Part shown: piece by piece, positions 1,820 through 33,011 of the stretch | Numbering within the stretch: position 1 is the stretch's first letter | How the letters are laid out: the number at the start of each line of letters is the position of its first letter | From: a virus | Length of the DNA stretch: 41,904 nt | Virus record (IMG/VR): IMGVR_UViG_3300045988_046732 | Strand: one strand, 5' to 3' | The notes under the pieces: generated by a model | Told to the model about the DNA's origin: nothing | What the model saw: only the letters and a program-made list of their open reading frames with translations | Databases searched by the model: none | Translations under genes and position numbers: made by a program

Positions 1820-2120
1820 ATGCATTAAACGAGCAGCCGCAGTAAAATCTGTTTTGCGGATGCGTAGACCGGAGAACAGCGTGGCTCAAAATAGGATGCT
1901 ATCGATTATCCAGATGGATATGTTGAAACTTCCCACCGCTGACGTTGCGCCGGTGGTGTATGGGCGGTGGATTCACGATGGGCGCAGGATTGAGAGTGGC
2001 ATTGATTGGTGCCATTGTAGTGAGTGTGGGAAATCAGATAACTTTTGCACGCGCACAAACTACTGCCCCAACTGCGGGGCCAAGATGGACGGTGATGACC
2101 ATGGAAGAGAAGAAATATGA
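1812..2120 (+). CDS. Hypothetical phage protein with C-terminal zinc ribbon (ADVAPVVYGRW...CSECG...CPNCG)
   Basis: ATG at 1812 preceded by AGGAGGGCTGGGA. 102 aa. Confidence 0.6.
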   Translation: MDECIKRAAAVKSVLRMRRPENSVAQNRMLSIIQMDMLKLPTADVAPVVYGRWIHDGRRIESGIDWCHCSECGKSDNFCTRTNYCPNCGAKMDGDDHGREEI

Positions 2121-2349
2121 CCCTGTCAACCACCCGAAGCACTACTGCCGGGAGGGCGGGATGGAGTGTTTGGAGGAGATGGAGCTGATATTCGGGGCGA
2201 ATGCGGTGCGGACCTTCTGCCTGCTGAACGCCTGGAAGTACCGATACCGGGCGGCGGACAAGAACGGGGAACAGGACCTGAAAAAGAGCGACTGGTACAT
2301 GCGAAAATACCGGGAGCTGACCGCTGACGCATATGGTCCACATGACTAA
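2095..2349 (+). CDS. DUF3310-like phage protein
   Basis: VNHPKHY...ECLEEMELIFG...FCLLNAWKYRYRAADKNGEQDLKKSDWYM matches the DUF3310 pattern. The start could be 2095 or 2101. Confidence 0.65.
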   Translation: MTMEEKKYDPVNHPKHYCREGGMECLEEMELIFGANAVRTFCLLNAWKYRYRAADKNGEQDLKKSDWYMRKYRELTADAYGPHD

Positions 2350-2650
2350 GGCGGAGCTGAAGAAGGCGGTGAGCTACCAGATCTTCTGCCGCAGGACGGA
2401 CAAGGGGATCAGCCAGCCGATGCTGGCTTACATGCTGGGGGTACATGAGCGCAACGTGCGGCGGTGGGAGAGCCGGGACGGGCTGCCTTCGCCGGTGATG
2501 CTGTGCCGCATGGCGGAGATCTTTAGCTGCACTACCGACGACTTACTGGGAAGGAGCAAAGAGAGAGATGGCAAGCGGGTTTTTGGAGCGGCAGCGCCGG
2601 ATACAGGAGGAGGCCATGGCCACGGCGGAGCGGATCACGCGGCAGTATGA
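2333..2650 (+). CDS. XRE-family helix-turn-helix protein
   Basis: GISQPMLAYMLGVHERNVRRWESRDGLPSPVMLCRMAEIFSCTTDDLLG is a typical HTH_3 core. The 3' end overlaps the next ORF. Confidence 0.65.
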   Translation: MVHMTKAELKKAVSYQIFCRRTDKGISQPMLAYMLGVHERNVRRWESRDGLPSPVMLCRMAEIFSCTTDDLLGRSKERDGKRVFGAAAPDTGGGHGHGGADHAAV

Positions 2651-2900
2651 CATAGACTGCTGGCAGATCGCACTGGCCAGGTATGACAAGCTGGAGCTGG
2701 GCTACCAGCGGATCATGGAGCTGACGGAGCTGGCCCAGCAGGTGCGGCGGGAGTACGCCGGGGCGATCACCCGGGACAACGAGCAGGACTACTACCGGGT
2801 GCACATGGACCGGGAGCTGCAGGAGATCGCCAAGCACCACATGACGGTGATCCCCTTTGAGACGCGCTACCCGGAATTAAAACGCTACATAGGGAGATAG
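2568..2900 (+). CDS. Hypothetical phage protein
   Basis: 110-aa ORF. An alternative start at 2616 has a better SD (AGGAGGAGG). Confidence 0.55.
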   Translation: MASGFLERQRRIQEEAMATAERITRQYDIDCWQIALARYDKLELGYQRIMELTELAQQVRREYAGAITRDNEQDYYRVHMDRELQEIAKHHMTVIPFETRYPELKRYIGR

Positions 2901-2905
2901 AGAGA

Positions 2906-3094
2906 ATGAACCGCGAACAGTGCCGACGCTGCATCTACTACAAACAGTTTTCTTCGGTTAAGATCGACATGGCCTGCCACTACATGCTGGACACAGGGAT
3001 GGCCAGAGTCAGGGAAGGGGACAAGTGCTACTCCCGGCTGACAGCAAAGCAGGCCAAGAAGAGGGGCTTTGACGCGCCCCTGTCGCAGAGATGA
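2906..3094 (+). CDS. Small Cys-containing hypothetical protein
   Basis: 62-aa ORF with GGGAGATAGAGAGA upstream, followed by a strong terminator. Confidence 0.5.
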   Translation: MNREQCRRCIYYKQFSSVKIDMACHYMLDTGMARVREGDKCYSRLTAKQAKKRGFDAPLSQR

Positions 3095-3098
3095 GAAA

Positions 3099-3131
3099 AG
3101 AGCGTACCCAGAGGTGGGTGCGCTCTTTTTT
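3099..3131 (+). terminator. Rho-independent terminator
   Basis: 12-bp stem agagcgtaccca/tgggtgcgctct (one G:T), loop gagg, then a T-run. Confidence 0.8.
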
Positions 3132-3157
3132 CTGTGTCAAGGGCAAAAAAGAAAAAC

Positions 3158-3183
3158 CGGGCAAGTTTGTCCGTGTTTTTTTC
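3158..3183 (+). terminator. Possible second terminator
   Basis: 6-bp stem cgggca/tgtccg (one G:T), loop agtt, followed by tgttttttt. Confidence 0.35.
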
Positions 3184-3274
3184 TTTAACCAGCTGAGACA
3201 ATAGACGCGGCGGGAGCCCCGACCGCCCAAAACCTCCTGTGACCTGCGGTGCGCCACCGTGCCGCAGGGCATAT

Positions 3275-3351
3275 GCAGACGTAGCTCAGATGGCAAGAGC
3301 GTTTCGCAAATAATGAAAATGTCGCGGGTTCGAGTCCCGCTGTCTGCGCCA
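3275..3351 (+). tRNA. Phage-encoded tRNA with encoded CCA; nominal anticodon AAT (Ile?) in a non-canonical loop CAAATAA (A at position 33)
   Basis: Hand-folded cloverleaf. Acceptor GCAGACG/TGTCTGC, D arm GCTC-AGATGGCAA-GAGC, anticodon stem TTTCG/TGAAA, variable ATGTC, T arm GCGGG-TTCGAGT-CCCGC, discriminator G, then CCA. Confidence 0.75.
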
Positions 3352-3840
3352 GAGGCCGGGTAGCGCCCGGACACTGTGAGACCGTTCGTCGTGGCTCACA
3401 TGAAAATGACAATGACTGCTGAAAACTGCACCGTGGGGGGAACCCGCATCAACGTAATGGTGCCGCATATGTAAAGCGGCAATCGGTGACGTGACAATTT
3501 AAGCGGTAAGACGGCCAATATGCGGCATAGGTGCCCCGCAAGGGGAGACCACAGCGAGTGACGGGGACTTTCCCTGAAGTGCTAAAGCAGGGCAAGACTG
3601 CAATGCCGTACCAACCACACAAGCGGGCGAGGAAGCGCGAAAAGTTAAGTGCACACAAGCTGTGGCCACAGCGGCGGACAGTTAATCCGCAAAAACAGTG
3701 TGCGGCTGATGAAAAGGCGCAGCGCGGTGTGGTGCCGATATGCAGATCGTAAAGAATATTTTGTTGAGGCCCTTTAGGGCTGGGTAGATCTGCTGCGTTG
3801 GAGCCAGGGGCGGGGGCCGGCAGCAAAAACAGGAGGTAGT
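3352..3840 (+). ncRNA. Candidate large structured non-coding RNA or leader next to the tRNA (function unknown)
   Basis: About 490 nt with no credible CDS. Contains a 10-bp long-range pairing (3461-3470 with 3518-3527), a cccc-GCAA-gggg hairpin, a 12-nt palindrome ctgtggccacag and several other stems. Confidence 0.3.
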
Positions 3841-5499: not shown

Positions 5500-6772
5500 C
5501 CCGAAACAGAAGAAGATCCTTTCTTTCCCTTATTCCAAGTATGACGCGCTGATTTGCGACGGTGCTGTGCGTTCCGGTAAGACCTCAATCATGATGTGGG
5601 CGTTCGTCCGCTGGGCGATGGAGAATTTTAGCGGCCAGCGTTTCGGCGTGTGTGGCCGCACGGTTGACAGCTGCACCAAGAACATTATTGTGCCGTTCAC
5701 GGCGATGAGCCTTGCGAAGGAACGTTATATCATCCGCTGGCGGCGCGGTGATAAGGTGATGGAAGTACGGCGCGGAGCCGTGACGAATTACTTTGAAGTG
5801 TTCGGCGGCAAGGACGAGGCAAGCTATACACTGATCCAAGGCCGCACCCTGGCCGGCGTGCTGCTGGATGAGGTAGTGCTGATGCCGCGCTCGTTCGTGG
5901 AACAGGCGCTTGCACGTTGCTCTGTAGATGGTGCAAAGCTGTGGTTCTCTTGCAACCCTGGAAGCCCGCACCACTGGTTCTACCAGGAGTGGATTAAGCG
6001 GCATCGTGAGCGGAATACGCTGTATCTCCATTTCGAGATGACTGACAACCCCGGCCTGAGCGAAAGAACGCTTGAGCGCTACGCGAATATGTATGCTGGT
6101 ATCTTTTATGACCGCTATGTTCGCGGACTGTGGGTGGCAGCGGAAGGTGTCGTATACAAGGATTTCGCCAACAACACCGAGAAATACTTGATTGGGGATC
6201 CCTTGGAGTGGGCCGAGCAGAACGGGACCAGGTTCTCGATCATTTCTATTGGCGTTGACTTCGGCGGAACAAAATCCGCGACGAAGTTTCAGGCAACCGG
6301 AATCACGAAGGACTATCGTGTGGTCGCACTGGAAGAGGAATACATTAAGAACGAAGAGATTGACCCTGACGCGCTGAACCGGCGCTTTGCTACGTTTGCC
6401 CAGATGGTGACGGCAAAGTATGGATACAGCCAGACACGGGCAGACAGCGCGGAAACAGTTCTGATCCGTGGGTTAGATCATACCGCGCAAAAAATGCACC
6501 TTGGCACGCAGGTTAAGAACGCGCTGAAAATGCAAATCACAGATAGAATCCGGTTGGCGGTGCTGCTCATGAAGCAGGGCCGGTTCAAGGTTTCGCGGAG
6601 CTGCCCTCACCTGATCGATGCGCTGCAAACCGCAATTTATGATCCTGATAAGTTTGAGGACGAGCGCCTTGACGATGGAACGTCCGACATTGACAGCCTT
6701 GACGCCTTTGAGTACAGCATTGAGCCTTATTACAAAGACCTGGAACGTGCCGGTCACATGATGGGACGGTGA
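5492..6772 (+). CDS. terL: Terminase large subunit
   Basis: Walker A CDGAVRSGKTS, Walker B-like GVLLDEV, and a C-terminal nuclease region. ATG at 5492 overlaps the terS stop (track start 5465 is possible). Confidence 0.9.
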   Translation: MISPKQKKILSFPYSKYDALICDGAVRSGKTSIMMWAFVRWAMENFSGQRFGVCGRTVDSCTKNIIVPFTAMSLAKERYIIRWRRGDKVMEVRRGAVTNYFEVFGGKDEASYTLIQGRTLAGVLLDEVVLMPRSFVEQALARCSVDGAKLWFSCNPGSPHHWFYQEWIKRHRERNTLYLHFEMTDNPGLSERTLERYANMYAGIFYDRYVRGLWVAAEGVVYKDFANNTEKYLIGDPLEWAEQNGTRFSIISIGVDFGGTKSATKFQATGITKDYRVVALEEEYIKNEEIDPDALNRRFATFAQMVTAKYGYSQTRADSAETVLIRGLDHTAQKMHLGTQVKNALKMQITDRIRLAVLLMKQGRFKVSRSCPHLIDALQTAIYDPDKFEDERLDDGTSDIDSLDAFEYSIEPYYKDLERAGHMMGR

Positions 6773-6776
6773 AAAA

Positions 6777-8180
6777 GTGAATATTCGTAGAGCATTAAAG
6801 GATCTCGGGTTTGACACGGTCGACAGCAAATTTTACTCTCTGATCGACCTTTGGAACGCATGGTATAAGGGAAACGTTGAAGATTTCCACAGCTATACGG
6901 TGTGGAATGGCATTGAAGAGTTGGAGTGCCATAGGTATTCGGTGGGAATGGGAAAGAAAGTCTGCGAGGATTGGGCCAACCTCCTAATGAACGAGCGAGT
7001 CAACATCACGCTTGAAGGCAAACAGGAGCAGGAATTTATCGATACTGTTTTTGCCGACAACAACTGGGAGGTCAAGGCTAACGAATCGCAGGAGCGCAAA
7101 GCGGCAGTAGGAACCGTTGCGTATGTGCCGGTGATGGAAGGCATGGGAATTAATCCAGATACGGCAGAGATCGTTGATTCTGGGCGTATTCGCATTAACT
7201 ACGTTAGTGCCGGGAACATCTACCCGCTGACGTGGGATAACGGCGTTATCCGTGAGTGTGCGTTCGCGTCCACCAGAAAGGTCGATGACAAGGAATATAC
7301 TTACATCCAAGTTCACCGGCTTCGTAACGGCGAGTATGACATTGAGAACCACCTGTATGATGCGGAGGAAGTCCCGTTAACCAGCGTAAAGGGGTTTGAC
7401 ACAATTCCTCCGGTAATCCATACCGGCATCGACAAGCCGCAGTTTGTGATCGACCGGCTGAACATTGCAAACTCTGACGAAAATAACCCGCTTGGCGTGG
7501 CTGTTTTTGCCCACGCCATCGACCAGCTCAAGAGCGTTGATATTACCTATGACAGCTATGTGAATGAATTTGTCCTTGGCAAGAAGCGCATTGTGGTACA
7601 GCCGGAGGCCACCAAGAGCATTGACGGTCGACCAGTGTTTGATAAGCGTGAGACCGTTTATTATGTGCTGCCGGAGGACAGAGGCGGAAACGGCAACATC
7701 TTACAGCAGGTCGATATGTCTCTGCGGACGGCGGAGTTTAACACCGGTATGCAAGATATGCTGAACATCCTGTCCAGCAAGTGCGGCTTCGGTGAGAATC
7801 ATTACAAATTTGACCAAGGCAGTATTGCAACGGCCACGCAGGTCATCAGCGAGAACAGCACCCTGTTCCGCACGATCAAAAAACATGAAATTGTGCTTGA
7901 ACGGGCAATCACAGAGTTGTGCCGGAGCTTGCTCCGCATGGGGAATCGATACATGGGCGCATCACTTAATGAGGACGTCCAGATCTCCATTGACTTTGAC
8001 GATTCCATCATTGAGGACAAGGGCCAGGACTTTAACCGTGACGTGCAGCTTCTTAACGCTGGCATCATGAACGATTGGGAGTTCCGTATGCGCTGGATGA
8101 ACGAGGACGAAGCCACCGCAAAGGCAGCACTGCCGAAGGCACAGGATATGGCGGACGAAGCAGAAGAAGAGATTGAGTGA
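6777..8180 (+). CDS. Portal protein (SPP1 gp6-like)
   Basis: 467 aa with a GTG start, located directly after terL. Acidic C-terminus and typical portal size. Confidence 0.85.
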   Translation: MNIRRALKDLGFDTVDSKFYSLIDLWNAWYKGNVEDFHSYTVWNGIEELECHRYSVGMGKKVCEDWANLLMNERVNITLEGKQEQEFIDTVFADNNWEVKANESQERKAAVGTVAYVPVMEGMGINPDTAEIVDSGRIRINYVSAGNIYPLTWDNGVIRECAFASTRKVDDKEYTYIQVHRLRNGEYDIENHLYDAEEVPLTSVKGFDTIPPVIHTGIDKPQFVIDRLNIANSDENNPLGVAVFAHAIDQLKSVDITYDSYVNEFVLGKKRIVVQPEATKSIDGRPVFDKRETVYYVLPEDRGGNGNILQQVDMSLRTAEFNTGMQDMLNILSSKCGFGENHYKFDQGSIATATQVISENSTLFRTIKKHEIVLERAITELCRSLLRMGNRYMGASLNEDVQISIDFDDSIIEDKGQDFNRDVQLLNAGIMNDWEFRMRWMNEDEATAKAALPKAQDMADEAEEEIE

Positions 8181-8191
8181 GGTGACAGCGT

Positions 8192-9925
8192 ATGAGGGCG
8201 TACCCGTTTGACCCATCTACGCTTGATGCGCTCCCAGAGGATCTGGCGGAACTGTTCCGGGCTCTTGAAATCACACTTCTGGAAGGAATTTGCTCTCAGT
8301 TAAAAGAGGCGGATGAGCTGAACGAGGTAACAGTACAGAGCATCCGGGCCTTGCGCTCACACGGGATCAACCTGAAGGAAATCAAGAAAGCAATTTACGA
8401 GACTTCCGGCATCAGTAAAACGAAGCTGGACGAGCTGCTGGGCGATGTGGTCGCAAGGAACCAACAGTATTACACCAATCTGATTGACCTTGCGCATATC
8501 ACACAGCCTGAGACACTGGTTGATGCTGCGGAAGTGGCAGCGATCAGGACGCAAACGCTGGATACATTTCACAATCTCACCGCATCCATGGGCTTCCTTG
8601 TGGACGCTGGGCGTACGATGCTTCCACCTGCAAAAGCGTACCAATGGGCACTTGACAACGCAGCGTTGCAGGTGCAGAGCGGTGCAATTAACTACAATCA
8701 AGCAATTAAAACGGCGGTAAAGGAACTTGCGGACAGCGGTTTGAAAGTGGTTGACTACGAAAGCGGCCATTGGGATCACGTCGATGTTGCCGTGCGAAGA
8801 GCCGTAATGACCGGCGTATCTCAAATCTGCGCCAAGTATACGGAGCAATCCGCAGAATATCTGGATACACCCTATTTTGAGGTCTCTGCTCATATTGGCG
8901 CGAGAGATAAGCCGGGACCGTCACCGTGGTCGAGCCATAAGGATTGGCAAGGCCGTGTTTACAGCGTCCGTGTCGGGGACATTTACCCGAGCATTTATGA
9001 GGTGTGTGGCCTGGGCGCTGTTGATGGTCTGGAGGGAGCTAACTGCCGGCACAGGCGGTTCCCCTGGGTTGAGGGTGTGTCCGAGCGCACCTACACAGAT
9101 GCACAGCTGGAGCACATCGATGATGGGCACGGCTGCACGTTTGACGGCAAGGGTTACACGGCATACGAGGCAACCCAGATGCAACGCCGTATTGAGCGGA
9201 CAATCAGAAAGCTAAAGCGCGAAAAAGCCGCCTACAAGGCCGCAGGATTGCATGAAGATGAGGATGCAGTAAACATACGGCTGCGGCGGTTAAACGCTAA
9301 ATACAAGGCGTTCAGCGCGGAAGCTGGCCTGCCGGAGCAACCGGAGCGGATGCGCGTTTATTTCGAGGATGATGCAACAATCAAAGCGGCAAATTCCATG
9401 AAAACGAAACGGGCAGAAGTGGTAGCAACTTATGCTAAAGACGATAGAGACACTCTTGAGTTTTTCGGCGCAGACGCAAGAGATAACTTGAATTCTATTG
9501 TAAAAAGACGTACAATGAAACTGGAAAATGGCTTTGCCTGCTTCCCAGACGGTGACCCGCTAAACGAAAACGTTAAAAGGGTAAAACCTCTTAAAACGTA
9601 TTTTGATGTTGCTATGCACGGGAGCCAGACGGCAGTTGGATTCGGGTCAGAAGAAACAAATATGTCACCGAGATTGCTTGCGTCTGTAATTCGACATAGT
9701 AATGGATGGAACGGGCAAAAAGTGAGGTTGCTGTCATGCAACACAGGCAAGCGCATTGAAAATGATTATTGCTTTGCAGAGGAACTTGCAAATGCGCTTG
9801 GCGTAAAAGTAAAAGCACCAACCGATGTTCTATACATACCACCTAATGGGGAAATGTATGTGGGGGACACCGGGGAGGGATATTTTGAAACGTATAAGCC
9901 AAACGAAAGGGGGCGGGTAAAATGA
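8192..9925 (+). CDS. MuF/SPP1 gp7-like minor head protein with an extra C-terminal domain (candidate polymorphic toxin or His-Cys peptidase-like module)
   Basis: 577 aa after the portal. The N-terminal ~400 aa are head-morphogenesis-like. The C-terminal ~140 aa are AT-rich and carry VAMHGS...VRLLSCNTGK...FAEELANALGVKVKAPTD. Confidence 0.75.
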   Translation: MRAYPFDPSTLDALPEDLAELFRALEITLLEGICSQLKEADELNEVTVQSIRALRSHGINLKEIKKAIYETSGISKTKLDELLGDVVARNQQYYTNLIDLAHITQPETLVDAAEVAAIRTQTLDTFHNLTASMGFLVDAGRTMLPPAKAYQWALDNAALQVQSGAINYNQAIKTAVKELADSGLKVVDYESGHWDHVDVAVRRAVMTGVSQICAKYTEQSAEYLDTPYFEVSAHIGARDKPGPSPWSSHKDWQGRVYSVRVGDIYPSIYEVCGLGAVDGLEGANCRHRRFPWVEGVSERTYTDAQLEHIDDGHGCTFDGKGYTAYEATQMQRRIERTIRKLKREKAAYKAAGLHEDEDAVNIRLRRLNAKYKAFSAEAGLPEQPERMRVYFEDDATIKAANSMKTKRAEVVATYAKDDRDTLEFFGADARDNLNSIVKRRTMKLENGFACFPDGDPLNENVKRVKPLKTYFDVAMHGSQTAVGFGSEETNMSPRLLASVIRHSNGWNGQKVRLLSCNTGKRIENDYCFAEELANALGVKVKAPTDVLYIPPNGEMYVGDTGEGYFETYKPNERGRVK

Positions 9926-10224
9926 TGCTATTCGGGTATTTTAAAGGCATGAAATATAGCACCCATGCCGATGACTTTGAAAAGTATCGCACGTTTAGAA
10001 ATGCTATCAGCCGAGATAAAATCATTGAACACATAGAATCATTAACCCCAGCTCTTGCGTGTTTTGAAACGTTTGATATTTTTACAGGAGAAAGATTGCG
10101 AGCGGGTCAATACATTGATGGCGATTTCAGATTTCCACTTGATTTTCTGCATTACTACAAGAATTATGATATTGGCATCCCCTATGAGTATGAAGCGTAT
10201 TTGAAAGAAATTGGGGTAGGCTAA
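9922..10224 (+). CDS. Small AT-rich ORF overlapping the MuF stop (candidate immunity protein)
   Basis: ATGA overlap with the upstream gene. 100 aa, with the same low-GC composition as the MuF C-terminal module. Confidence 0.6.
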   Translation: MMLFGYFKGMKYSTHADDFEKYRTFRNAISRDKIIEHIESLTPALACFETFDIFTGERLRAGQYIDGDFRFPLDFLHYYKNYDIGIPYEYEAYLKEIGVG

Positions 10225-10355
10225 TGGATGATAAACTGATGCAGGCCATCGAGGCTATTATCCGGCGCGGTAATGATGCGGAGATCCGACGCAAGGGTGA
10301 CGGTTACATCGTGTTAGAAGTCAAGAAAACAATCAAATATTCAACTCCCTCGTAA
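10224..10355 (+). CDS. Small hypothetical protein (43 aa; absent from the ORF track)
   Basis: TAATG overlap. Hand translation: MDDKLMQAIEAIIRRGNDAEIRRKGDGYIVLEVKKTIKYSTPS. Confidence 0.45.
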   Translation: MDDKLMQAIEAIIRRGNDAEIRRKGDGYIVLEVKKTIKYSTPS

Positions 10356-10502: not shown

Positions 10503-11096
10503 ATGGCACTTACACGCAAACTTTTAAAGGGCATGGGTCTCACCGACGAACAGGTGGATACCATCATTGAGGCGCATACCGACACCGTGGACGGCCTGAA
10601 GGCTGATATCAGCCGTTACAAGACGGATGCGGAAAAGCTGCCCGGCGTCCAGAAGCAGTTGGACGATCTAAAGGCGGTGGGTGACGGCGGCTATCAGGAT
10701 AAGTACGAGAAGGAGCACAAAGCCTTTGAGGACTTTAAAGCTGGCGTCACGGCAAAGGAAAGCAAGGCGGCAAAGGAAAAGGCCGTTCGTGCTTACTTTG
10801 AAAGCAAAAACATCACCGGCGCAAATCTCGACCTTGCCATGCGTGGCTGCGGCGAGGAAATGGCAGCGTTGGAGCTGGACGGCGAGAAAATCAAGGACAC
10901 CAAAAGCCTTGACGCCCTCGTAGACGGCACCTACAAGGGGCTTGTTTCCAAGCCTGCTATTCGGGTTGATATGGGTGGACGGCTCAATGAAGGCGGGAAA
11001 CCCATGACAAAGGACGAGATCATGCAAATCACAGACAGAGCGGAGCGGCGTGCTGCAATCGCTGCAAATATGGATTTGTTTAGAAAGGAAGAATGA
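10503..11096 (+). CDS. Head scaffolding protein
   Basis: 197-aa charged, helical, K/E/D/A-rich protein directly upstream of and overlapping the capsid gene. Confidence 0.75.
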   Translation: MALTRKLLKGMGLTDEQVDTIIEAHTDTVDGLKADISRYKTDAEKLPGVQKQLDDLKAVGDGGYQDKYEKEHKAFEDFKAGVTAKESKAAKEKAVRAYFESKNITGANLDLAMRGCGEEMAALELDGEKIKDTKSLDALVDGTYKGLVSKPAIRVDMGGRLNEGGKPMTKDEIMQITDRAERRAAIAANMDLFRKEE

Positions 11097-11971
11097 AAAT
11101 GGCTGTTGATCCTAAGCTGATTAAGAAGGAAGATCTTGCTCGTGTTCGCGAGATCGAGTTCACCGAAATGTTCGGCTACTCCATCAAGAAGCTGATGGAG
11201 GCTCTGGGTGTTACCCGTAAGTTTGCCAAGCAGGCCGGTACTGTGCTCAAGAGCTACAAGGCAACCGGCACTTTGGAGGACGGCGCTGTGGCCGAGGGCG
11301 AGACCATCCCCCTGAGCAAGTACAAGACCGAAGCCGTGAACTATAAGGAGATCACCTTGAAGAAGTGGCGCAAGGCCACCTCTGCCGAGGCAATCACTGA
11401 TCGCGGCTACGATCAGGCCGTCGAAATGACCACCGATGAAATGCTGAAGGACGTGCAGAAGGGCATCCGCAAGGACTTCTTCGACTTCCTTGCAACTGGT
11501 TCCGGAACGGCATCTGGTGCGACCTTCCAGGCTACCCTTGCACAGGCATGGGGCCAGCTGCAGGTGCTGTTCGAGGACGACGAGATCGGCGCAGTTTATT
11601 TCATGAACCCGCTGGACGTTGCGGACTATCTCGCAACTGCCAACATCACCCTGCAGACCGCTTTCGGCATGACCTATGTCGAGAACTTCATCGGTCTGGG
11701 CACTGTGATTCTGAACTCCAGCGTCCCCAAGGGCAAGATTTACGCCACCGCTAAGGACAACATCGTCCTGTACTACATCCCCGTGAACGGCGCTGATCTG
11801 GGCGAGGTGTTTGACTTTGTCACCGACGCAACCGGCTACATCGGTATCCACGAGGAGCCTGATTACACTAACATGACTGCGTCTGATACCGTTATTAACG
11901 GTATGGCGCTGTTTGCCGAGCGCATCGATGGCGTGGTTGTTGGCACTATTACCCCGGCAGTGGGGGGCTGA
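11093..11971 (+). CDS. Major capsid protein
   Basis: 292 aa after the scaffold gene. Position and size are typical. Ends ...PAVGG-TGA inside a G6 run. Confidence 0.85.
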   Translation: MKMAVDPKLIKKEDLARVREIEFTEMFGYSIKKLMEALGVTRKFAKQAGTVLKSYKATGTLEDGAVAEGETIPLSKYKTEAVNYKEITLKKWRKATSAEAITDRGYDQAVEMTTDEMLKDVQKGIRKDFFDFLATGSGTASGATFQATLAQAWGQLQVLFEDDEIGAVYFMNPLDVADYLATANITLQTAFGMTYVENFIGLGTVILNSSVPKGKIYATAKDNIVLYYIPVNGADLGEVFDFVTDATGYIGIHEEPDYTNMTASDTVINGMALFAERIDGVVVGTITPAVGG

Positions 11972-29022: not shown

Positions 29023-29322
29023 ATGATTGACGAGCGAGAATTGGCGCTATGGATCAAGCGGTTGGAAACGGAAGAGTCCAGCTGGTCGAACTACGAAAAG
29101 CTGGCGGCGCTGTATACCATCCAAAACCAAAACCGGGAACCGGTGAGAGAAAGCCGCATTGTTGAGGCGTATTCTGCGGCTTCCGCGCCTGACAGTGATT
29201 TCCTCCGGGCTGTGGCAAGCATTGACCCCTCCCGCGCATGGGAGGTTATGGACGAGCTTATGGACAGTTTAAAGGTTGTGAATGAGCGCATTTATAACAA
29301 CGTTATGCGGAAACTCGAATAA
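29023..29322 (+). CDS. Hypothetical protein, last gene of the cargo operon
   Basis: AAGGGGG SD. 99 aa. Confidence 0.6.
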   Translation: MIDERELALWIKRLETEESSWSNYEKLAALYTIQNQNREPVRESRIVEAYSAASAPDSDFLRAVASIDPSRAWEVMDELMDSLKVVNERIYNNVMRKLE

Positions 29323-29323
29323 G

Positions 29324-29353
29324 ACACCCCCCGCCTTTTTAGGTGGGGGGTGT
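29324..29353. terminator. Hairpin between convergent genes (probable bidirectional terminator)
   Basis: 9-bp stem acacccccc/ggggggtgt. There is no clean T tail on either strand. Confidence 0.45.
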
Positions 29354-29399
29354 TAGGCATATTAGATGTTCAGTGTGGGGAATATAAAATAAGCCTAAC
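29352..29399. other. Candidate attP core for the serine integrase
   Basis: About 48 bp of imperfect dyad symmetry (gttaggcatatt ... aatataaaataagcctaac) abutting the integrase 3' end, at the boundary between cargo and lysogeny modules. Confidence 0.3.
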
Positions 29400-30696
29400 G
29401 AGGCAAAACAAAAAACGCGCCGTTATTATCTGCTTCGATCCGCTTTACTGTTCTGGTCCAGAATTCTTTTTTCATTTGCGGCGATAGGTTTGGATATTCC
29501 TCAATCTCTCTATGGAGTGCGTCACGGTCAAAATATTTCGGCTTTTGCGGTTCCATTTGCGATAGCTGTTGTTTTAAATCCTCATAATCTTTTCTATATT
29601 CGTCCAGCTCTATTAAATCAGCAAGGTATAGGTCTTTAAGTTTCGACATCTTTTTTCTGATTTTGTCCGCAGATAATGCGGGCTTTTTTTCTGCCTCATC
29701 GTATTGCCCGTGATATTTTGCGGCCATCTGCTCAATGCTGTTCAGCATGTAACTCTCCAGCACATCCTCTCGAACGCATTGGCGATGATCGCACTGTGCA
29801 TTCATCCTAAATTGTGTCCTGCACCGATAGTATTTATAACCCTTTACTGCGTTAGACTGCATTATTTGCCCGCATTCACGACAACGCAATATACCAGAAA
29901 ACAGATATACATTACCTTTCCTCGTGCCACAGCAGCGCTGGCTCCGCTGTTTCATGATTTCTCCGGCCAGCTCAAAGTCATGTGTGCTGATAAGCGCCGG
30001 GAATGCGTTTTCAATTCCATATACTTCTCCGATATATAGACGATTTGTTATTGCGTTTTTGTAATTGTTATATGCTCGATAAATACCCCAGGTGTCAAAC
30101 ATATATTGCCTGAGTGCGAGAGTGCTTTTTAGTTTGATATAAGCACTAAACATATCCACGGCAATCTCTGCTGTATTTTGGTCTATCTCATATCGTCCAT
30201 CCTTGATCGTTATTCCAAGGGGAGTTTTTGACCCGGAAGGTATTCCTTTTGCTTTCTTCCCTTCATTTATAAATTTAATCCGTTCACTTGTCCGGTCGGC
30301 TTCGTCCTGGGCGACGGACAGCATAATATTAACCTTTAACCGCCCGGACGCCGTCCGTGTTTCATAATCCTCTTTGGTGGCCTGCCAAGTCACGCCGTAC
30401 TTATCAAGCTGCGTTTGTACGTCGTAATATCCAGCGACATTTCTAAACCACCGATCCAATTTAATAAATAGGATGGTATCAATTTTCCCGCTCTTGCAAT
30501 CCTCCAGCAGCCTAAGCAGCGCCGGCCGCTTTTTATACGGCTTTCTGGCTGAGATCCCGGCATCCTCATAGATCCCGACAACCTCCATTTCATGCGCTTC
30601 TGCATATCGCTCCAGCGACTCTTTTTGCTCTGCAAGGGACAGGCCGTGTCGGGCCTGCTCCTCTGTTGACACGCGAATATATAATGCAGCCCTCAT
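29395..30696 (-). CDS. Large serine recombinase (integrase)
   Basis: MRAALYIRVSTEEQ (catalytic Ser), resolvase and recombinase domains, zinc ribbon CRECGQIM...YYRC and a C-terminal coiled coil. GGAGGAG SD at ATG 30696. Confidence 0.9.
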   Translation of the reverse strand: MRAALYIRVSTEEQARHGLSLAEQKESLERYAEAHEMEVVGIYEDAGISARKPYKKRPALLRLLEDCKSGKIDTILFIKLDRWFRNVAGYYDVQTQLDKYGVTWQATKEDYETRTASGRLKVNIMLSVAQDEADRTSERIKFINEGKKAKGIPSGSKTPLGITIKDGRYEIDQNTAEIAVDMFSAYIKLKSTLALRQYMFDTWGIYRAYNNYKNAITNRLYIGEVYGIENAFPALISTHDFELAGEIMKQRSQRCCGTRKGNVYLFSGILRCRECGQIMQSNAVKGYKYYRCRTQFRMNAQCDHRQCVREDVLESYMLNSIEQMAAKYHGQYDEAEKKPALSADKIRKKMSKLKDLYLADLIELDEYRKDYEDLKQQLSQMEPQKPKYFDRDALHREIEEYPNLSPQMKKEFWTRTVKRIEADNNGAFFVLPR

Positions 30697-30697
30697 C

Positions 30698-31111
30698 TTA
30701 TCTCCTCCAGAATCCATAGTTTAGACAGTTCATATCAATGTACACGCACCAGATGGAGAGAAACACGATGATGCAAAACATAATAAAAATAACGACGTTT
30801 CGGATGCGCACACCGCGACGCATGATTTCTATGGTGTCTGCCTTTGCGTCAACGTGCCGTTCCAATTCGTCGTTTCGAGCTTTCAATGTTCGTTCCGTTG
30901 GAGTCAAGTGTTCGGAGATCCCGAACACTTCGTCGAGAGATATCCCGAGGGATTTGCAGATCGGCGCTGCGGTATAAATAGAGGGGGCCTTGGACATCTT
31001 CGAGAAAAAGTTCTGAACCGTGGAAATTGGAACGCCGGATTCATCCGAGATTTCTTGATATGTGAGCTTCAGCGCATCTTTCCGGATTCTACACAACTCT
31101 TGTATGTTCAT
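30698..31111 (-). CDS. Membrane-anchored XRE-family HTH protein, adjacent to (one nucleotide upstream of) the integrase gene
   Basis: AGGAGG SD. HTH LTYQEISDESGVPISTVQNFFS, a coiled coil, and a C-terminal TM segment VVIFIMFCIIVFLSIWCVYI. Its stop lies 1 nt from the integrase start. Confidence 0.7.
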   Translation of the reverse strand: MNIQELCRIRKDALKLTYQEISDESGVPISTVQNFFSKMSKAPSIYTAAPICKSLGISLDEVFGISEHLTPTERTLKARNDELERHVDAKADTIEIMRRGVRIRNVVIFIMFCIIVFLSIWCVYIDMNCLNYGFWRR

Positions 31112-31448: not shown

Positions 31449-31610
31449 ATGATGTTGTATGATGACGCAAAATTTGATACAATAAACAGAGAAGATACCG
31501 AAATGCTGCGCGAAAAGCTGATATGCGCTGCGCTGGCACTTTCGCGTGAAGCCAAGCTTGAGCTTCTGAAATTTATCGAGGGGAGAGAGAGCAATGAAAG
31601 AGGCCGATAA
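31449..31610 (+). CDS. Small hypothetical protein (53 aa; absent from the ORF track)
   Basis: GGAGGGAAGC SD. Hand translation: MMLYDDAKFDTINREDTEMLREKLICAALALSREAKLELLKFIEGRESNERGR. Confidence 0.45.
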   Translation: MMLYDDAKFDTINREDTEMLREKLICAALALSREAKLELLKFIEGRESNERGR

Positions 31611-31848
31611 AATGTGGTACATCGACCCAAAAATGGTTGATGCGGTAAATCGGTGCATGGATGTTATATCCGCCTGTGGGCTTTCCACTGACAGCGCGGA
31701 ATACCTTCCATTTTGCTTAGATCAGGCAATCAAGGCAAGCAATCAGATTTCCGCGCAAAAAATCCCGTTTCGAGCAACGCCAGTAAAAGTCGAAAATGAC
31801 AACGGGTGCTGCGACGTCAAGCCTTGGGAGTTATTATTTGTTCAATAG
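31594..31848 (+). CDS. Hypothetical protein (AT-rich island)
   Basis: 84-aa ORF overlapping the upstream small ORF. Confidence 0.5.
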   Translation: MKEADKMWYIDPKMVDAVNRCMDVISACGLSTDSAEYLPFCLDQAIKASNQISAQKIPFRATPVKVENDNGCCDVKPWELLFVQ

Positions 31849-31887
31849 CTGCCAACGCAATCCCTTTTGAGATTGTTTCGATCACCG

Positions 31888-32334
31888 TTACGGCTTTTGC
31901 CTCTTGCTCTCCAAAAAATCAATATAGCGTAAAATCTCCGTCAATTCCTCCGCAGATGCGGAGCGGATAAACTGGACGATTTTATCATCCACACCCTCGA
32001 TCTTCGGATCGGGGGCTTCTTTTTTCCCCTCGGCCTCGACCAGTTTCCGTACCGTCTCAATATCTTTTAAGCACTTTTCGGTTTCTTCCGGGGTTTTTCC
32101 CTCGTGCAGGAGGATGTCATCGGGGGAGACGTTGAGCGTTAAACACATTTGCACAGCAAGTTCTTTTGATGGCAAATTCAAATTTTTGCTTCTGCGTAAG
32201 TCAGATACCCATCTATTGTTTTTCCCAAATTTTCGAGAAAACGAAGCTTCACTAATATCTTTTCTTTTGCAATAAGCCTCGATAAATTTAACGCAATTAT
32301 TACCGAGAGTAACGCTATTTAATGTTTTCGGCAT
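31888..32334 (-). CDS. XRE-like HTH protein (candidate prophage repressor)
   Basis: 148 aa. ISEASFSRKFGKNNRWVSDLRR... is HTH-like, with an acidic helical C-terminus. Lies in the leftward operon of the switch region. Confidence 0.55.
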   Translation of the reverse strand: MPKTLNSVTLGNNCVKFIEAYCKRKDISEASFSRKFGKNNRWVSDLRRSKNLNLPSKELAVQMCLTLNVSPDDILLHEGKTPEETEKCLKDIETVRKLVEAEGKKEAPDPKIEGVDDKIVQFIRSASAEELTEILRYIDFLESKRQKP

Positions 32335-32345
32335 ATTAAATTCCT

Positions 32346-33011
32346 TTAAATTATATCTATTCCGTATAATGCCGCTTGGGCCAATGTTTTTTGATAGGCT
32401 TTAGAATTAGAGTTTTTCATTCTGGAGTATCCAGATAATGATTTTGGGCACAACGCAGGAAGATATTCTTGCAATCGATAATATTCATGTCGGATAGAAC
32501 GCTTTCTAATTCGTTCTTCTTCCATTTTCTTAATTAAGCGCTTCCATTTAAAATATGCAAATACGTTTGGGAAATCTCTTATAGAGAGATGCGGGTATAT
32601 TCCAACTTTTTGAAAATAGGAATCAACTCGCGCTTCTTCTTCCCATGCTTGCTTATGTGCACCTAAATTGTGCAAATGCATTATGTCAGATATGTAAGCA
32701 TCGTACTTCCAAACCATATCTGATATAAACATTAAGCTATGTGCTTTTCTTACACATTCTACGGCAAGTGCAATATTTTTCTCTTTGTAGTATTTTGCGA
32801 AGCACTGACCGCGCAAGTAATATTCTACACGGCCTGTAGGGGAATCTCCGTTTACCTCTGTACATGGGACAGGAATATTTCTTATCCCATCAACGGTTGA
32901 AAAATCATAAAAGCTTCTCAATCTAACGACTTCTTGTTCTCTTATTTGAGAATAAGCGTCGTTTTTTTCTTCGAGCGTTTTAGATCCGTCATCAAAAATA
33001 TTGTAAGCCAT
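32346..33011 (-). CDS. Hypothetical 221-aa protein, first gene of the leftward lysogeny operon (no family recognised)
   Basis: Long AT-rich ORF. There is no obvious SD upstream of the ATG at 33011. Confidence 0.6.
   Translation of the reverse strand: MAYNIFDDGSKTLEEKNDAYSQIREQEVVRLRSFYDFSTVDGIRNIPVPCTEVNGDSPTGRVEYYLRGQCFAKYYKEKNIALAVECVRKAHSLMFISDMVWKYDAYISDIMHLHNLGAHKQAWEEEARVDSYFQKVGIYPHLSIRDFPNVFAYFKWKRLIKKMEEERIRKRSIRHEYYRLQEYLPALCPKSLSGYSRMKNSNSKAYQKTLAQAALYGIDII

Follow-up and report, generated by a model that had tools for sequence, protein, structure and literature searches.

Polymorphic toxins built on phage head proteins of the MuF superfamily, with immunity genes downstream, have been described (Jamet 2017, PMC5576092), also as the 'MuF phage-capsid-like system' (Zhang 2012, PMC3482391), and caspase-like toxin domains are likewise on record, the latter by computation only. 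Apk2 is the only MuF toxin type on which experiments have been done, and what MuF toxins do in the phage cycle is described as unknown (PMC12254948); the Apk2/IapK toxin–immunity pair has been shown experimentally (PMC12226406). The locus considered here lies in a stretch of 41,904 nucleotides of viral DNA (IMG/VR virus record IMGVR_UViG_3300045988_046732), referred to at its full length as the window, in which positions 9353-10203 are probably a mobile toxin–immunity cassette grafted on the C-terminus of a MuF2 head protein in a temperate phage of gut Clostridia. The fusion appears to be a new example of a MuF polymorphic toxin and not a new class, its role as a toxin being predicted from sequence comparison and a structural model.

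An initial annotation, made from the letters of the window and a list of its open reading frames (ORFs), had noted two ORFs overlapping by ATGA, a MuF-type head protein with an AT-rich extension and a small ORF behind it, and had proposed them as a toxin–immunity pair. The observation itself is confirmed, with both ORFs present, at 8192..9925 (577 aa) and 9922..10224 (100 aa), and annotated 'hypothetical protein' in all sources; the toxin–immunity interpretation is supported by the predicted fold and by sequence relationships. The features of the fusion, its C-terminal domain (CTD) and the cassette are as follows.

8192..9925, + strand: MuF2-CTD fusion gene (577 aa), candidate polymorphic toxin; an ORF called 'hypothetical protein' in all public sources
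8192..9352, + strand: carrier, MuF2/Phage_min_cap2 head-protein domain, aa 1-387; matched by PF06152 (E 5.8e-82) and phrog_581
9353..10203, + strand: AT-rich cassette (linker, CTD and small ORF); absent as one unit from the sibling phage MT837048.1 (L008), GC 0.38-0.44 against 0.53 in the carrier
9353..9487, + strand: linker, aa 388-432 (~45 aa); predicted local distance difference test (pLDDT) 53-63 at the start of the model, columns poorly conserved in alignment A1
9488..9829, + strand: putative catalytic core, caspase-like (clan CD, DUF4347/C80-like), aa 433-546; from the AlphaFold2 model, Foldseek and profile search
9617..9619, + strand: codon of the putative catalytic His476 (FDVAMHG), after a beta-strand; His-Gly invariant in the broad alignment A4
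9737..9739, + strand: codon of the putative catalytic Cys516 (VRLLSC), after a beta-strand; invariant in A1, A3 and A4
9830..9922, + strand: variable CTD tail, aa 547-577, candidate partner-specificity element; a Gly-anchored hairpin region with a conserved PN.R.R.K end
9922..10224, + strand: small ORF (100 aa, isoelectric point (pI) about 5), candidate immunity protein or inhibitor; from the ATGA overlap, homologues and linkage to the CTD

The N-terminal part of the 577-aa protein matches PF06152 (Phage_min_cap2) over residues 7-374 and also phrog_581, 'minor head protein'; PF06152 is the family designated 'MuF2' in Jamet 2017 (PMC5576092), and the MuF proteins of sibling phages stop where this domain ends (...GLPEQRERMKVLY*), so that the assignment to a MuF-type carrier, adjacent to the portal gene, stands. 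The phage is taken to be temperate because a large serine recombinase gene (29395-30717) and an endolysin are present in the window, and gut Clostridia genomes have homologues of the CTD cassette in their prophages, intact or reduced to remnants. The proposed membership in the described class is thus borne out by a MuF-superfamily N-terminus beside a portal gene, an extension that alternates with recognised toxin domains, a small ORF (<150 aa) directly downstream and a temperate phage of gut Firmicutes, as in the MuF polymorphic toxins of Jamet 2017 (PMC5576092) and Zhang 2012 (PMC3482391). Unlike the MuF toxins so far, which bear nuclease, metallopeptidase, ADP-ribosyltransferase or (p)ppApp synthetase domains, this one has a predicted caspase-like cysteine peptidase fold, and its partner falls in no named immunity family. 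The proteases of the MuF system in the table of Zhang 2012 (PMC3482391) are papain-like only, and no description of a MuF carrier combined with a caspase-like CTD was found in the literature on MuF toxins, polymorphic toxins and polyvalent proteins; 'caspase', 'C80' and 'DUF4347' do not occur in the part covered of the Jamet 2017 supplement, which proves nothing on absence.

The boundaries of the cassette are given by comparison with the sibling gut phage MT837048.1, which is 91% identical to the window in the portal gene, 76% in the MuF part (8222-9352) and 87% in the scaffold region from 10204 on, and has no counterpart of 9353-10203; its MuF protein has 392 aa and ends ...GLPEQRERMKVLYEN*. 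Since the edges of the AT-rich stretch coincide with the segment missing from that phage, linker, CTD and small ORF are regarded as a single indel. The GC content and the GC content at third codon positions are 0.534 and 0.58 in the MuF part, 0.438 and 0.40 in the CTD and 0.376 and 0.37 in the small ORF, equally AT-rich 825-nt windows make up just 2.7% of those in the 41.9-kb window, and the mean GC of the cassette across homologous loci (0.431, against 0.521 in the flanks) is shifted in 55 of 57 distinct backbones. The change in composition is therefore not a chance fluctuation and coincides with the indel. The foreign-looking segment of the initial annotation is in this respect real, although it begins at about 9353 and not at 9400, and the extra domain of ~140 aa that had been noted is present and can be refined to a linker of ~45 aa and a domain of 145 aa (residues 433-577).

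The C-terminus of the MuF2 carrier is truly polymorphic. In a survey of 76 IMG/VR loci with a MuF2 carrier 82-94% identical to that of the window and enough downstream sequence, 51 bear this CTD, 19 other long C-termini and six a short one, and the alternatives in the slot include CdiA_C (PF18451), the BECR-fold RNase PBECR2 and two types without a family match; the suspicion that the C-terminus is swappable is thus correct for near-identical carriers. Whether the downstream gene swaps with it had been put forward as a check, and the answer is clear: in this near-isogenic set all carriers with the CTD (51/51) also have the small ORF and none of those without it do (0/25), which shows strict co-inheritance. 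Among other cassettes in the same slot are an abundant 583-aa form with an unmatched C-terminus and the CdiA_C form (L130 3501-5252 and L170 3489-5231), the latter with no ORF called in the 204 nt before the scaffold gene, and behind a 514-aa MuF2 form, whose C-terminus is likewise unmatched, lies a Cys-rich ORF of 64 aa, a candidate immunity gene (L182 5038-5232). The CTD family also rides on MuF1, MuF2, LPD3 and giant WXG100-type toxins and on several carriers without a Pfam match.

When the AlphaFold2 model of the CTD, built from 49 homologues (pLDDT 88.9, predicted template modelling score 0.83), is compared with the Protein Data Bank (PDB) by Foldseek, nearly all of its matches are clan-CD peptidases, the best being the C80 cysteine protease domains (CPDs) of TcdB, TcdA and Vibrio MARTX (3pa8, 3pee, 3ho6, 3gcd, 3eeb, 8yjc; E 5e-3, probability up to 1.0, template modelling (TM) score 0.43-0.51), followed by the CHAT protease of Craspase, caspases, gingipain and legumain. 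In this model FDVAM-H476-G follows strand E54-58 and VRLLS-C516 follows strand E94-98, in the same His...Cys order as in the C80 domains and with similar spacing (40 residues in the CTD). In alignment A4, whose members are 27-42% identical to the window CTD, invariance is confined to the His with the Gly after it, the Cys and two hydrophobic positions, and His-Gly and Cys are the sole polar residues without variation. Model and conservation together show that the CTD, a putative peptidase, has a caspase-like fold of clan CD in minimal form and that its His476-Gly/Cys516 dyad is conserved. The resemblance to clan CD and C80 that had been offered as only a pattern match thus gains from the Foldseek matches, from the invariant His-Gly and Cys and from weak family matches among relatives: of 28 close CTD relatives, six weakly match DUF4347 (best E 0.02) and one matches Peptidase_C80 (E 0.068). 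The suggested structural search of both proteins succeeded for the CTD and gave no informative fold match for the 100-aa ORF.

C80 domains are switched on by host inositol hexakisphosphate through the beta-flap and cleave their own polypeptide. Like the CPDs of TcdA/TcdB and MARTX, the CTD is a piece of a larger, here predicted, delivered toxin; unlike these domains of about 200-250 aa, it has a core of ~115 aa, is C-terminal, is predicted to act in bacteria and has a protein partner. From its sequence relatives, the CTD is assigned to the Tox-Caspase class, overlapping Pfam DUF4347 (PF14252): an exhaustive profile search with the CTD family (E<=1e-3) returned 2,277 representatives, and in the repeats of giant proteins the CTD-family profile and above-threshold DUF4347 matches coincide on the same residues. 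Both share a caspase-like fold and an H...C signature, the class is recorded in Caudovirales, and its copies are internal in giant multi-effector proteins of the type VII secretion system kind and C-terminal on other carriers (Zhang 2012, PMC3482391). The internal copies are there read as releasing peptidases and the C-terminal-most copies as predicted toxins, some caspase-like repeats having no catalytic residues (PMC3482391). The window CTD differs from the class in lying below the DUF4347 threshold and in its extra variable tail ending PN.R.R.K, and the immunity family listed for Tox-Caspase, Imm36 (Zhang 2012, PMC3482391), is not matched by the small ORF.

The giant proteins themselves (2,800-6,800 aa; P0241, P0253, P0263, P0312 and others) have an N-terminal WXG100-like domain and 3-8 DUF4347-type repeats, spaced by ~450 aa in P0241, and also bear PI3/PI4-kinase-like or TcdA/TcdB-glycosyltransferase modules; the layout is a MARTX-like 'effector plus protease' one, apparently for type VII secretion, and similar arrays are mentioned by Zhang 2012 (PMC3482391). 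In Oscillospiraceae metagenome-assembled genomes (MAGs; L109 2-2365, L114 4561-6384), CTD proteins on unannotated carriers adjoin large proteins with Tox-PL1/Gln_amidase or MuF_C C-termini, which suggests clusters of several delivered effectors. Some CTD-bearing head proteins (P0242, P0352) have intein-like insertions (sub-threshold Intein_splicing matches) within their MuF1 or MuF2 domain, which are probably true inteins; an intein or HINT domain upstream of the CTD as a 'releasing peptidase' was ruled out, the matches being sub-threshold and within the MuF domain.

The small ORF overlaps the CTD gene at 9922-9925 (ATGA), with a G-rich Shine-Dalgarno-like run, AAAGGGGG, just upstream, an arrangement that, judged from the sequence, shows translational coupling to the CTD; a consensus scan for an internal promoter gave nothing usefully above the shuffled expectation. 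Its homologues number >247, each of about 100 aa, and in 114 of 121 instances it stands directly behind the CTD, in general with the 4-nt overlap. Most of the seven exceptions trace to the end of a contig, to an artefact of filtering (L097, L102) or to a CTD reduced to a short remnant (L120). The two apparently partnerless CTDs of L097 and L102 were ruled out as such, because the small ORF is present in both and had been lost to a start-codon filter, and no intact CTD without a small ORF was found. The pairing extends to CTDs on MuF1, MuF2 and carriers without a family match, and the overlap is maintained across carriers down to about 50% identity. On one short contig of a Lachnospiraceae MAG (L108, JAZQCK010000016.1, 1-2909), at least three CTD cassettes stand in tandem; a divergent CTD copy (941-1531) is there matched by a small ORF of its own (1528-1857) that has diverged correspondingly, and ahead of the third copy lies a 133-aa ORF unrelated to them (2008-2409). 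The CTD is basic, with a median pI of 9.4, and the small ORF acidic, with one of 4.9. The AlphaFold2 model of the small ORF is confident (pLDDT 94.5), with no match in the PDB and only uncharacterised viral proteins in BFVD; there was no match to Pfam, PHROG or NCBIfam, and at E<=10 none of 41 family members matched an Imm family, Imm36 included. The small ORF is thus a member of an undescribed partner family.

Covariation between the two proteins is concentrated in the tail of the CTD. The last 31 residues, which have no equivalent in the repeats inside the giant proteins, consist of variable columns between invariant Gly, Pro, Asn and Arg. The identity of the small ORF follows that of the tail (Pearson r 0.92, partial 0.83) far more closely than that of the core (r 0.71, partial 0.17), and the agreement with the tail is especially good for the N-terminal half of the small ORF, which is the variable one. 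Among CTD pairs with cores >=88% identical, the partners are about 98% identical in 253 same-tail pairs and about 56% in 172 different-tail pairs, nine pairs being intermediate, and tail types agree with partner types at an adjusted Rand index of 0.95, so that tail and small ORF exchange as one unit on a conserved core. In a small sample there are about 16-18 tail-plus-partner types.

Copies that have lost their phage bear on the function of the partner. In several chromosomal sites (L001-L007, L010-L014) the pair is kept although prophage structural genes are absent or lie to one side of it only, and there the '145-aa stand-alone genes' are gene-caller artefacts of disrupted fusions. More generally, the stand-alone CTD genes of 134-146 aa were ruled out as a conserved free-standing toxin gene: they are pseudogenised fusions miscalled by gene finders. 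Their called start is an internal ATG or a TTG that is a conserved Leu codon, and just before it come remnants of the linker and a stop in the same frame. A 98-aa fragment represents the 90%-identity cluster containing the 577-aa protein, and many 'proteins' in the cluster list are fragments or TTG-start calls. The decay is asymmetric, in that every intact CTD has its partner, and intact small ORFs stand beside CTDs without the catalytic His in L117-L119. In a very widespread remnant (L208-L211, e.g., ERZ937230 NODE_659, around 5958-6721; 148 index blocks), a 291-nt deletion corresponding to 9325-9615 of the window takes out the linker and the His region, joins the MuF end to the CTD just past the catalytic His and shifts the frame, and the small ORF (97/100 aa identical) and a 41-aa ORF are intact. 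The surroundings of this remnant are not a head module, with a 741-aa coiled-coil protein upstream and, in L210, integrase and helix-turn-helix genes nearby.

By analogy with SPP1 gp7-type MuF proteins, for which capsid incorporation and exit with the DNA are summarised in PMC5576092 and PMC12226406, the fusion would enter the capsid in a few copies by way of its MuF domain and come out with the DNA when a cell is infected. In the cytoplasm of the recipient, the cysteine peptidase would cleave at least one host protein, leading to growth arrest or cell reprogramming, and in the producing cell the co-translated small protein would bind the basic CTD and block it. In the small protein, the C-terminal half, which is conserved with the pattern DG.F.FP..FLHYYK.YDIGIP.EYE.YL, probably contacts the conserved catalytic face of the CTD, and the variable N-terminal half probably binds the 31-residue tail, a contact that would determine the matching of inhibitors to toxins. 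Any cell that keeps the small ORF, be it a lysogen or the carrier of a decayed prophage, would resist incoming particles of the same type.

Several observations weigh against this interpretation. The structural likeness to C80 is modest at its best (E 5e-3). The CTD spans only about half of a CPD, and the target-normalised TM score is 0.30-0.42, much of the CPD being unmatched. The window CTD has no Pfam match at E<0.1 and so lies below the thresholds of both PF14252 and PF11713 (Peptidase_C80), PHROG and NCBIfam give no direct match, and sequence and profile searches against PDB sequences, the solved C80 structures included, returned nothing significant. Adjacency alone, with breakpoints in the conserved core, could produce the covariation of tail and small ORF without any protein contact, and two phage lineages dominate the pair counts, which are not corrected for phylogeny; for both reasons the tail–partner interface is put forward here as a proposal. 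In the widespread L208 remnant, pN/pS (nonsynonymous to synonymous polymorphism) does not discriminate between the CTD fragment (0.13) and the small ORF (0.09), so that differential selection was considered and is not supported. No immunity gene is evident in the sibling cassettes that bear PBECR2 or CdiA_C; not every effector in the slot needs one, which leaves room for a role other than that of a toxin.

The main alternative, credible although on balance unlikely, is that of a host-takeover or anti-defence effector: the packaged protease would be injected with the DNA to cleave host defence or regulatory proteins, following the logic of polyvalent proteins, and the small ORF would be a safety catch in the producer cell until packaging. 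MuF fusions are so interpreted by Iyer 2017 (PMC5512222), where MuF-anchored effectors are thought to be packaged and injected; relatives of the CTD occur on LPD3 carriers of the polyvalent type and beside MuF_C and Tox-PL1 proteins, the PBECR2 siblings fit without an evident immunity gene, and Jamet 2017 (PMC5576092) suggests that MuF toxins of the peptidase type could be moderately toxic and guide the lysis–lysogeny decision. Polyvalent proteins have several effector domains (2 to 15) and are not described with cognate immunity genes; the window protein is a carrier with one effector domain, and PMC5512222 makes no mention of caspase-like domains. Against the alternative, a pure safety catch for the producer cell would be useless in decayed prophages without virion genes and beside His-less CTDs, where the small ORF is kept, the exchange of tail and small-ORF types resembles diversifying immunity specificity, and the same slot hosts CdiA_C, a classical antibacterial toxin domain.

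It is very unlikely that the CTD is a cis autoprocessing domain, comparable to the C80 CPDs of MARTX and TcdA/TcdB, in which cleavage of the linker would free the CTD or the MuF domain at assembly or ejection, with no target in trans and with the small ORF timing the cleavage. The nearest structures are indeed autoprocessing CPDs, and the family recurs about every 450 aa between effector modules of giant WXG100-type proteins in the layout of releasing peptidases, as the internal copies are read by Zhang 2012 (PMC3482391). The window CTD is, by contrast, terminal, with no cargo downstream, a position read as that of a toxin in the same survey (PMC3482391); siblings assemble with a short MuF and no CTD, so that a processing step is not needed; the partner-linked tail is absent from the internal repeats; and if the reaction were purely in cis, it would be difficult to see why it has a dedicated partner whose specificity types can be exchanged. 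A purely cis role is less likely because the CTD is terminal, dispensable in siblings and provided with a type-specific partner. The existence of near-identical phages with a short MuF and no CTD likewise ruled out an essential head-maturation protease. Highly improbable, finally, is a non-catalytic binding or structural CTD next to an unrelated moron, a reading that may draw on the Leu replacing His in the relative P0085 and on the repeats without catalytic residues in Zhang 2012 (PMC3482391) but has against it the family-wide invariance of His-Gly and Cys, the 51/51 versus 0/25 linkage, the 4-nt overlap retained down to about 50% identity and the matched divergence of CTD and small ORF in L108.

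The neighbourhood of the toxin–immunity cassette is that of a head module, with a scaffold gene (10503-11096) and a capsid gene (11093-11971) downstream of the MuF gene and two further features at its borders.

6777..8180, + strand: portal gene; PF05133 SPP1_portal, E 2.5e-18, 91% identical to the sibling phage L008, with the MuF gene directly downstream
10224..10355, + strand: 43-aa ORF of the phage backbone; homology to L008 resumes at 10204, and homologues follow cassette-less short MuF genes (L189, L192)

The 43-aa ORF (...AI.AI..RGNDAEIRRKGDGYIVLEVKKTIKYS) is conserved between MuF and scaffold and is coupled by TAATG to the small ORF; it was ruled out as a component of the cassette, being a backbone gene found also in the cassette-less siblings. 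In L008, a 1.5-kb insertion between portal and MuF (2011-3501), encoding a 227-aa ORF (2822-3505), is a second variable site of the same head module. Further AT-rich islands of the window (GC down to 0.35) are located at 31600-32700, which holds the minus-strand ORFs 31888-32334 and 32346-33011, neither matching Pfam, and at 29250-29600, which overlaps the end of the serine recombinase gene; both may be further acquired cargo of the lysogeny region.

In summary, the toxin–immunity interpretation gives a putative function to two families of 'hypothetical protein' and ties the uncharacterised DUF4347 to the C80-type toxin proteases. The cassette is common in human-gut phage and Clostridia sequence, with hundreds of contigs and about 2,300 family representatives, and it would offer a second tractable model of a MuF toxin, with an activity, that of a predicted cysteine protease, different from Apk2, together with clear candidate catalytic residues (His476, Cys516), an unannotated partner family and natural variants of specificity. 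A bolder proposal, which is speculative and rather doubtful, is that the CTD and the small ORF represent an undescribed, protein-regulated branch of C80/DUF4347, in which a partner of ~100 aa takes the place of the host small molecule, the ~16-18 tail/partner types form a recognition code among gut prophages, and the injected protease arrests or kills cells without a matching partner, whether from a resident prophage or an orphan gene. If that were true, the virions of these phages would police which lineages can be superinfected.

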